Positions 37,963-39,603 are shown, counted from the stretch's first letter. The stretch is DNA of 64,000 bases from a virus (IMGVR_UViG_3300045988_010208); one strand, 5' to 3'. The notes: generated by a model not told the origin, from the letters alone. Numbers and translations: made by a program.

Positions 37963-37988
37963 AGTCTCATTTTAATGTAGTTGAGACT
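37963..37988. repeat. Hairpin with conserved loop ATTTTAATGTAG (copy 1; stem AGTCTC/GAGACT)
   Basis: One of three hairpins with identical loop and flanking AACTACCCA but different stems. Confidence 0.55.
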
Positions 37989-38088
37989 AACTACCCACAC
38001 CTTACCTCACCTGACCTGACCTGACCCTACCTAACATTACCGTGCCGCACCTCACTTAAAAACCTTCTTAGAAGACTCTTAAGTGATG

Positions 38089-38116
38089 TAATCGAATTTT
38101 AATGTAGCTCCGATTA
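38089..38116. repeat. Hairpin with conserved loop ATTTTAATGTAG (copy 2; stem TAATCG/CGATTA)
   Basis: Same loop and downstream AACTACCCA as copies 1 and 3, stem sequence replaced by a different complementary pair. Confidence 0.55.
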
Positions 38117-38196
38117 ACTACCCATACCTGACCAAACCTTGCCAAACCTTACCTCACCCAACTACACCGAACCTTATTAAAAGACCCTCTTAAAGA

Positions 38197-38227
38197 CCTT
38201 TTAAAAAGGAGCCTCCGAAGAGGCTGC
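38197..38227 (-). terminator. Hairpin terminator downstream of 38237..38677 (minus strand)
   Basis: GGCAGCCTC-TTCG-GAGGCTCC stem-loop followed on the minus strand by a U-tract. Confidence 0.5.
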
Positions 38228-38236
38228 CTAGTCAAC

Positions 38237-38677
38237 TTAGAAAGGTTTTCTACGTTGCTTGTTAATGTTAGCTTTCATAGCAGCTAAATGGTTTTGCTGT
38301 TCAATTAGTCGTGAACGTTCTTGATGGCTAAGTGCCATAGTGTTCACATTCTCAATTGCTTGAGTGGCTTGCTTTAAAGCTCGACCAATCTTACCAGACA
38401 TTTTACGTTTTGCAATAGTTGCTTGATGCTTAGGTTCAACCACACGATAACCAACACCCATTGAAGCAACCAGATAAATCTTCTCTTCTTTAAGAAGCTT
38501 CTCAATAAACTTCTCAAGTCGGTTTAGACGTGTAAGCGCATAAGCCTTCATTTCATCTTCGTACTTAACAATGTCACCTTGATAAGTTGGCTTCACAATA
38601 CCTAAGAAGGTGTCCATCTCAGAATGTGATACAGTGTCACCGTAACTAAACTTTGCTGCTAATGCTTTCGTATTCAT
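38237..38677 (-). CDS. Hypothetical protein (cassette gene 2)
   Basis: 146-aa ORF; flanked by composite repeats. Confidence 0.5.
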   Translation of the reverse strand: MNTKALAAKFSYGDTVSHSEMDTFLGIVKPTYQGDIVKYEDEMKAYALTRLNRLEKFIEKLLKEEKIYLVASMGVGYRVVEPKHQATIAKRKMSGKIGRALKQATQAIENVNTMALSHQERSRLIEQQNHLAAMKANINKQRRKPF

Positions 38678-38679
38678 AA

Positions 38680-39282
38680 TTAAACGTTACCTTCTGAAAT
38701 AACTTCTACAGAAAAACGACCAAAGCGTGGACGCCAATCACCTACACCACAAAGGTTACCAGCATTTTCCAGAACCATCAAGAGTTCCTCTTTGGTAATT
38801 TGCTCTTCATCGAACATCAAACCGAACTCTACAGACCAGTCACGGAAGATTGGACGGTAGCTCATAACTCGTGCTGTACCAATCTTAACAGACTTAGCAT
38901 AGATAAAGTCTGGATTCTTAGCAAGTTCTTGTGGGTTTGCTGGACAGTTCTTGATAGTCATTGGGAAGACTACATCTGTCAGCATAATGGCTCGGTCAAT
39001 TACCTTACCAAGTTTGTTGAGTTTTGCACCAGACTTGATACAAGCCTCAATCATCTCACCGTTCATAACAAAACCTAGCTGCTCATCGTAGTAACAAGAA
39101 GTTACCAGTTGACTTTCTGCTAAGAGCGCATAGTCTTCGTCAGTCTTTTTACGTTTACTGGACAGAGACTTGTGATATTTTGTCAGAGGGTTTAATGGGT
39201 CTGACAGCGTATCGTTATGGCTCAAGAAAGGACGAGTACCAGTGATTTTGACATTTAACAGTTTCATAGCATTTAGCTCCAC
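38680..39282 (-). CDS. Hypothetical protein (cassette gene 1)
   Basis: 200-aa ORF; no motif recognised. Confidence 0.5.
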
Positions 39283-39359
39283 ACTTTAGTTGATTGTTAA
39301 GTTGTTTGTAAAGAACCCTCAACAGAAGACTCTTTAGAAACTTGGTAGATTTTTAACGT

Positions 39360-39603
39360 GGCTACTACCATCCACCCATACCAGACCAGACCAGACCAAG
39401 CCAAGCCCAACACTACCGAACCGGACACGACCAGACCTTATTAAAAGACCCTGTTTAAAGACCTTTTAAAAAGGTAAGTCTCATTTTAATGTAGCTGAGA
39501 CTAACTACCCACACCAAACCATAGCATACATCGCATTACCGGACAGAACCATACTTTACCAAACATCACTTAAAAACCCTCTTAGAAGACTCTTAAGTGA
39601 TGC
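39360..39603. repeat. Composite intergenic repeat, copy R
   Basis: Same block order as copy L: GGCTACT(A/G)CCATCC, CCAGACC x3 tract, TTATTAAAAGACCCT..TTAAAG..CCTTTTAAAAAGG, hairpin, CA-rich tract, CACTTAAAAACCCTCTTAGAAGACTCTTAAGTGATG. Confidence 0.65.
39477..39502. repeat. Hairpin with conserved loop ATTTTAATGTAG (copy 3; stem AGTCTC/GAGACT)
   Basis: Identical loop and flank to copy 1. Confidence 0.55.

Follow-up and report, generated by a model that had tools for sequence, protein, structure and literature searches.

We analysed a 64-kb stretch of viral DNA, IMGVR_UViG_3300045988_010208 (64,000 nucleotides, nt; hereafter the window), in which an earlier note made from the sequence alone had pointed out three short hairpins with one identical loop. 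These three hairpins are very probably the invariable 3' tails of three guide RNAs (vrRNAs), out of five encoded by a type II locus of the phage-borne, CRISPR-like VIPR (Viral Interference Programmable Repeat) system in a Felixounavirus. Because the Vipr and Vap proteins encoded beside them are near-identical to those of Escherichia phage SUSP1, and fall inside the clade defined by more than 90% identity, the hairpins are the tails of the vrRNAs that we designate B1, A1 and A2. The element is a genuine, selected RNA element, a small-RNA handle bound by a protein rather than a promoter or an origin, with a role for the tail itself that we infer. The finding is already explained by very recent literature, namely the VIPR preprint of June 2026 (bioRxiv 10.64898/2026.04.26.720920).

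That preprint describes VIPR as composed of Vipr, a small RAMP protein built on an RRM core and bearing a glycine-rich loop, an accessory vap gene, and vrRNAs. These RNAs, of about 100 nt, contain at least 4, and typically 9–16, YNNGG repeats in which GGY is conserved and NN is hypervariable, and end in a 3' tail of about 40 nt that does not vary and whose conserved structure comprises a pseudoknot. SUSP1 is the model phage, in which vrRNA expression, co-purification with Vipr, target repression and the targeting rule are reported as demonstrated; following this rule, the NN dinucleotides pair with DNA and one target base is skipped between them (bioRxiv 10.64898/2026.04.26.720920). The options of a protein-binding stem-loop and of a small RNA, both offered by the earlier note, agree with these data, since the SUSP1 vrRNAs carrying this same tail were detected as RNAs of about 100 nt that co-purify with Vipr. 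In the window we found the corresponding features of a type II system: a Vipr protein, an adjacent vap gene, flanking vrRNA genes on the same strand, and target matches of the NN code. As for the tail, we observed its sequence invariance and the hairpin stem already seen in the earlier note (stem S2), together with a possible second stem (S1) that is complementary but invariant.

As written on the plus strand, copy 1 consists of AGTCTC (37963-37968), ATTTTAATGTAG (37969-37980), TT and GAGACT (37983-37988); copy 2 of TAATCG (38089-38094), A, ATTTTAATGTAG (38096-38107), CTC and CGATTA (38111-38116); and copy 3 of AGTCTC (39477-39482), the same loop (39483-39494), CT and GAGACT (39497-39502), with AACTACCCA after each of them. 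The observation of three hairpins with an identical loop was correct, because there are exactly three occurrences of ATTTTAATGTAG and three of AACTACCCA, always with complementary arms. The 12-mer has exact matches at the three hairpin sites only, considering both strands of the 64 kb, while by our own arithmetic chance alone would give some 0.008 exact hits for any given 12-mer; likewise, the flank is found exactly at 37989, 38116 and 39503 only. The hairpins are not free-standing, being embedded in a tandem module of 122-128 nt, and a repeat search of the window identified an 86-nt unit present in five copies with this same spacing. They fall in two long intergenic regions (37743-38236 and 39283-39667) located at either side of two minus-strand genes, and every gene around them is also on the minus strand.

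The search of related phages for the loop motif, which the earlier note had put forward as a check of its reading, yielded, counting the window together with 25 related loci, 26 distinct copies, all of them between complementary arms. In minus-sense RNA, the tail reads GGGUAGUU-[6 nt]-ARCUAC-AUUAAAAU-[6 nt], and is near-invariant: the 14-nt 'loop' and the 8-nt 5' flank are unchanged in the 26 copies. There are only two classes of stem, AGUCUC/GAGACU (alpha) and AAUCGG/YCGAUU (beta), and stem S2 is fully paired in every copy. When both classes are aligned in a single register, G-C changes to A-U, U-A to G-C, and C-G to G-C or G.U, and the other three pairs are identical. The proposed stem covariation was therefore right in that the change is compensated, with three of the six pairs differing and all three compensated, but not in its extent, because the apparent swap of all six pairs resulted from a 1-nt register shift. 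Complete pairing in the 26 copies and the three compensated pairs support the claim that the hairpin is a selected structure. The pair closing the beta stem is G.U in most copies and would be an A.C mismatch if read on the plus strand, the one written in the earlier note; function in the minus-sense RNA is therefore favoured, and these sequences point to the minus (gene-sense) strand as the functional one. In addition, ARCUAC, six of the 'loop' nucleotides, is complementary to what was the 3' flank in the earlier note and is, in the RNA sense, the 5' flank GUAGUU; this possible stem S1 (GUAGUU/ARCUAC) together with S2 gives the topology of an H-type pseudoknot, which is also predicted for the tail of this clade in the preprint (bioRxiv 10.64898/2026.04.26.720920). 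The alpha-class tails of B1 (GGGUAGUU-AGUCUC-AGCUAC-AUUAAAAU-GAGACU; 39477-39510, minus) and A2 (37963-37996, minus) correspond to hairpin copies 3 and 1, respectively, and the beta-class tail of A1 (GGGUAGUU-AAUCGG-AGCUAC-AUUAAAAU-UCGAUU; 38090-38123, minus) to copy 2.

Upstream of each hairpin, in the minus sense, there is a G-rich tract with a strict 5-nt periodicity, made of GGYNN pentamers (10-11 before the three tails). A signal of at least seven of ten successive pentamers with in-phase GG appears nowhere else in the window, and shuffled sequences reached a maximum of five. Among 71 distinct tracts, from Felixounavirus loci and the window, all read (GGYNN)n, with GGT or GGC kept and NN free, and their lengths (43, 48, 53 ... 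93 nt) are always 3 modulo 5, save for four exceptions that are 1 nt longer owing to one internal indel. Orthologous tracts are random-like (identity of about 0.6) between phages whose adjacent gene is 98-99.5% identical, and identical tract alleles are occasional, with a mosaic distribution among phages. Specificity is carried by the GGYNN tract and not by the hairpin. The window locus has five such tracts, of 10-13 pentamers, all on the minus strand: B1, with 11 pentamers (39511-39565; NN = TT AA AT TC CC AA GA AT AT TT GT), and B2, with 13 (39373-39437), both recognised by their period-5 GG, and A1, with 10 (38124-38173; NN = TC GT TG GA AA TT AA TT CA AT), A2, with 11 (37997-38051; NN = GC AC AA TA AG CA CA CA GA AA GT), and A3, with 12 (37864-37923).

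The first of the two enclosed genes, vipr (38680-39267, minus), encodes a protein of 195 amino acids assigned to phrog_4652 that is 97.4% identical to its SUSP1 counterpart (our locus L012); a GTG at 39282, upstream of this open reading frame, is probably not the start. Vipr has no match in Pfam, and belongs to a family of at least 527 homologues with an invariant C-terminal G-rich loop. Its AlphaFold (AF2) model (pLDDT 94.2, pTM 0.86) retrieved with Foldseek top PDB hits that are almost all CRISPR RAMPs, namely Csm3, chains of the type VII complex and Cas6, with E-values of 2e-4 to 2.5e-3 and TM-scores of 0.41-0.52 for the Csm3 and type VII hits; as judged from this model, Vipr is a small Cas7-like RAMP protein. 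Directly after it, vap1 (38237-38677, minus) encodes an accessory protein of 146 amino acids (phrog_5926), without matches in Pfam, NCBIfam or PADLOC, that is 99.3% identical to the product of the gene following vipr in SUSP1, which the preprint names vap1 (bioRxiv 10.64898/2026.04.26.720920).

The association of tracts with Vipr extends beyond these phages. An exact scan of IMG/VR for (GGTNN)6GGT retrieved at least 120 loci, of which 118 were newly fetched, most of them from unrelated phages; roughly half of the tracts look non-coding, and many occur in arrays or just before a gene. In these loci, the product of the gene beside the tract frequently terminates in G-x-G-D-x-R-P-x-x-G-R-F, as does the 195-amino-acid protein encoded between the two arrays of the window. 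A family profile search identified a Vipr homologue in 35 of the 118 loci, and tract and homologue share the strand in 73 of 76 tract-gene pairs. Another 28 loci contain non-coding tracts and no Vipr homologue within the stretch fetched, either because the gene is cut off or because they are further orphan guides. The (GGTNN)n tracts in many unrelated viral contigs (L028-L145) alternate with differing inter-tract elements, such as GGCTAATG, repeated seven times in L037, and GGAATGGTTTAATGAATTTAATTT, nine times in L047, and two of them adjoin tRNA genes (L050 and L100).

Applying the targeting rule of the preprint (bioRxiv 10.64898/2026.04.26.720920), the B1 code gave a single perfect match (22/22) in all IMG/VR, inside an open reading frame and with the skipped base at codon position 3, as is reported there for most targets. 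The same target sequence exists in an island of about 11 kb that splits a yecE/DUF72 gene in E. coli JNEC-KY173 and contains genes for a serine recombinase, baseplate, tape measure, an HTH protein and a Dam methylase; sequences related to this island are present in 470 of 5426 complete E. coli genomes. With a 1-nt skip, the island scored 22/22 for B1, 19/20 for A1 and 19/22 for A3, and none of 300 order-shuffled codes scored as high, whereas skips of 0, 2 or 3 nt gave scores of merely 14-17. The full-length A2 code had no exact hit; with a trimmed code we found matches of 21/22 in four provirus contigs, of which L150, L152 and L154 are clearly related to the island and L153 only marginally, the shuffle test having covered B1, A1 and A3. 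In L154, A1, A2 and B1 all match one single element. The predicted A2 target begins at ATGATG, a possible gene start, in L150 and L152. There are now predicted targets for four of the five vrRNAs, and from these matches the VIPR guides of this phage appear to be aimed at a satellite element residing in E. coli chromosomes.

Several observations weigh against the identification of the hairpins as vrRNA tails of a VIPR system, or limit it. The covariation of S2 amounts to one event between two paralogous classes, and not to many independent ones, because there are just two stem classes across the 26 distinct copies; S1 is invariant, so that covariation speaks neither for nor against the pseudoknot, and the tails show nothing unusual in folding energy (z-scores of -0.7 to -1.5). 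In the A2 target, the skipped base falls at codon position 2, and not at the wobble position, within an open frame (L150, 829-860; L152, 12572-12603), and vrRNA B2 has no detectable target in the island or the provirus contigs. Finally, the expression, ends and processing of the five vrRNAs are assumed from SUSP1, the role of the tail is inferred, and the source is itself a preprint.

It could be argued that the hairpins are only transcript-end or stability elements, such as weak terminators, blocks to 3'-exonucleases or processing signals, without any specific contact with Vipr, which we consider improbable. The tails do occupy the 3' end of each unit, with modest folded stems (-5.6 to -10.4 kcal/mol), and the alpha-class copies have YACC and a run of five U after the stem; however, the U run is absent from the beta-class and end-of-array tails, and a terminator scan (G+C-rich stem, 3-8-nt loop and an immediately adjacent U run) called a site at 38225-38210 only, and none of the three hairpins. 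Moreover, a plain end-protecting hairpin needs no invariant 14-nt 'loop' and 8-nt flank beside tracts saturated with changes, and the tail is part of the RNA that co-purifies with Vipr (bioRxiv 10.64898/2026.04.26.720920).

We give very little credence to a function of the hairpins in DNA, as an extruded promoter like those of the N4 virion RNA polymerase, a single-strand initiation signal or a replication origin, even if the region is situated among replication genes, with a ligase gene at 39818-40957, and G.T pairs are possible in a displaced DNA strand of the same sense. N4-type hairpin promoters have a 5-7-bp stem and a loop of 3 nt, as opposed to 14 nt here, and are read by a phage-encoded RNA polymerase. 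Felix O1 phage encodes no RNA polymerase (PMC3185647), and the modules contain no promoter-like site: a sigma-70 promoter inside the hairpin, with TAAAAT in the loop, was not called by the promoter scan. An origin or an R-loop finds no support in GC skew, which merely follows gene orientation, and a packaging end was discarded, given that a sister phage has its direct terminal repeats at some 57 kb from the ligase gene (PMC4837284). The elements also travel with vipr and vap, with the Felix-O1-type phage FO1a being without them, and there is a complete RNA explanation with experimental support (bioRxiv 10.64898/2026.04.26.720920). In all, the earlier note came near the mark with a protein-binding stem-loop or a small RNA, but not with a promoter or an origin, nor with the strand or with how much of the stem was swapped.

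Equally far-fetched, in our opinion, is that the modules are mainly recombination cassettes, similar to the T4-type 'PeSL' promoter/stem-loop, that shuffle accessory genes and in which the hairpins are incidental: array copy number does vary between phages, a 222-nt direct repeat flanks the two genes (37867-38088 versus 39381-39602, 77% identity), tract alleles are mosaic and FO1a resembles a deletion between arrays, but the same two genes are always enclosed, with a spacing of 1254-1281 nt in all loci compared, the modules carry no promoter, and the GGY/NN code and the satellite matches would be left unexplained, recombination among repeats being an expected side effect. Other candidates were dropped once the link with Vipr emerged: a similarity to the RfaH ops element (GGCAGTAGCC versus GGCGGTAGCG), TRAP-like ring binding, a Rho rut site on antisense RNA, a cluster of primase sites, two-tetrad G-quadruplexes, a tRNA-CCA sponge and a ToxI mimic.

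The VIPR locus of the window shares with that of SUSP1 the vipr and vap1 genes and the layout with vrRNAs upstream and in a downstream array. The two loci also agree in their YNNGG repeats, in the sequence of the tail and in the family of targets, which is that of a satellite-like island of E. coli. They differ in the number of vrRNAs, which is four in SUSP1 (1 + 3) and five here (two upstream and three downstream), in the NN codes, and in the presence in SUSP1 of one hybrid unit, with an alpha tail followed by a beta spacer. The tail also resembles the repeat handle of the crRNAs from class 1 CRISPR systems, with their Cas7/Csm3 RAMP backbones, in that both involve a RAMP-fold protein, a variable guide capped by a conserved structured part and a periodic reading of the guide RNA; however, VIPR has a period of 5 nt instead of 6 nt, with a GGY that is sequence-specific, pairs non-contiguously with its target, carries the handle at the 3' end and is encoded by the phage. 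According to the preprint, VIPR operates without cas1/cas2, spacer acquisition or a protospacer adjacent motif (bioRxiv 10.64898/2026.04.26.720920). A CRISPR array was likewise rejected for the window, where the 'spacers' are constrained to GGYNN and the RAMP gene and vap are the only genes present, with no adaptation genes. The antitoxin RNA arrays ToxI, from type III toxin-antitoxin systems, are also composed of tandem RNA units beside the gene for a small protein, from which a terminator separates them; each ToxI unit folds into a pseudoknot, as is predicted for the tails here. Nevertheless, ToxI units are identical and of 36 nt, whereas those described here measure 122-128 nt and include a hypervariable stretch, and the fold of the protein is that of a RAMP and not of a ToxN-type nuclease.

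The window derives from a phage of the Felix-O1/wV8 type and matches many Felixounavirus records, LMP34, Andreotti and wV8 among them, at 92-94% DNA identity. The element is not described in the Felix O1 or wV8 genome papers; public records label the spot as 'repeat_region' ('DR_4' in wV8, and also in the BASEL phages) or, in one phage, 'terminator', and give the genes of the locus as 'hypothetical protein'. This E. coli-phage region is also contained, at 94.7% identity, in GU169904.1, a 147-kb record named Staphylococcus phage SA1, and is matched by two Campylobacter phage records; these three records are probably chimeric or mislabelled.

A putative sigma-70-like promoter, P1 (TTGACA-N16-TATACT; 39633-39660, minus; 11 of 12 consensus positions), lies upstream of the first array and vipr, and the same promoter occupies the same place in FO1a. 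An inverted repeat, GGTGAGTA...TACTCACC (39606-39643, minus), spans its -10 box and the first approximately 25 nt of the transcript and is also conserved in FO1a. An intrinsic-terminator-like hairpin, AGCCUCUUCGGAGGCU with a U run (38203-38225, minus), directly follows vap1, with no other site of this kind in 37300-40000. In each array, the last vrRNA has a variant tail, GAUGG(C/U)AGUAGCC...AAAAAUCU(G/A)CC, that is, GGYAG...CURCC: that of B2 is GAUGGUAGUAGCC...AAAAAUCUACC, with stem GGUAG/CUACC (39344-39372, minus), and that of A3 is GAUGGCAGUAGCC...AAAAAAUCUGCC, with stem GGCAG/CUGCC (37835-37863, minus), so the two stems differ by one compensated pair. No covariance model from Rfam matched at E-values up to 1 on either strand of 37300-40000. 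Near the end of the locus, a second sigma-70-like promoter, TTGACA-N17-TATTTT (37787-37834, minus), lies ahead of the next gene. The 19-nt inverted repeat on either side of its -35 box (37788-37806 / 37816-37834) may be an operator, and there is a gene for an HTH regulator nearby (36853-37182).

Downstream of each of the three hairpins there is, in addition, an A/U-rich spacer hairpin of 39-40 nt, of which there are two kinds, also termed alpha and beta. They have 17-18 bp, including 3-4 G.U pairs in the minus-sense RNA that would be mismatches on the plus strand, and 94-96% of the cells are paired, but formal covariation is weak, with the observed scores reached by 63 and 249 of 500 shuffles, and we do not claim it. 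On the minus strand, beta spacer hairpins precede vrRNAs B1 (CAUCACUUAAGAGUCUUCUAAGAGGGUUUUUAAGUGAUG; 39564-39602; 18 bp with four G.U pairs) and A2 (38050-38088), and alpha ones are found at 39436-39475 (ACCUUUUUAAAAGGUCUUUAAACAGGGUCUUUUAAUAAGG) and 5' of A1 (38172-38210) and A3 (37922-37961). These hairpins between vrRNAs are not mentioned in the text of the preprint (bioRxiv 10.64898/2026.04.26.720920), and may be processing or termination signals.

Phage FO1a has no homologue of Vipr or Vap in its entire 83 kb, as searched with hidden Markov models at E-values up to 10. What it retains between the ligase gene and gp86 is P1, a beta spacer hairpin, a single and somewhat degenerate tract of 12 pentamers and an end-of-array tail (locus L026, 2330-2660, minus; 57651-57700 in the FO1a record), an arrangement resembling an orphan vrRNA or the scar of a deletion. 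The code of this tract scored 15/22 against the E. coli island, which is no match.

Bringing these elements together, the locus would be transcribed on the minus strand, each vrRNA consisting of 10-13 GGYNN pentamers and a tail of about 34-40 nt. Transcription of the arrays would start from P1 (39660-39633) and would have to read through the terminator-like hairpin (38225-38203) to reach the downstream array, and the precursors might be cut at or near the spacer hairpins. Vipr (38680-39267) would bind the vrRNAs, as shown for SUSP1, and their NN dinucleotides would read double-stranded DNA with one target base skipped between them, following the SUSP1 rule; binding would then repress the target, here a satellite-like E. 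coli island with baseplate and tape-measure genes. The tail, with S2 and the possible S1 pseudoknot, could work as the repeat handle of a crRNA does, capping or nucleating the assembly of Vipr and defining or protecting the 3' end. We regard as rather unlikely, taken jointly, that spacer hairpins release the vrRNAs from the P1 transcript, that the tail classes load or rank guides differently, and that the orphan vrRNA borrows Vipr from a co-infecting phage or acts as a decoy against the Vipr of such a phage.

The conserved handle of a newly described class of RNA-guided systems was thus picked out from raw sequence alone. For this phage, the analysis provides a concrete annotation, with coordinates for vipr, vap1 and five vrRNAs, and the locus could serve to address the biology of VIPR, including the function of the tail, the processing of the arrays and orphan guides.

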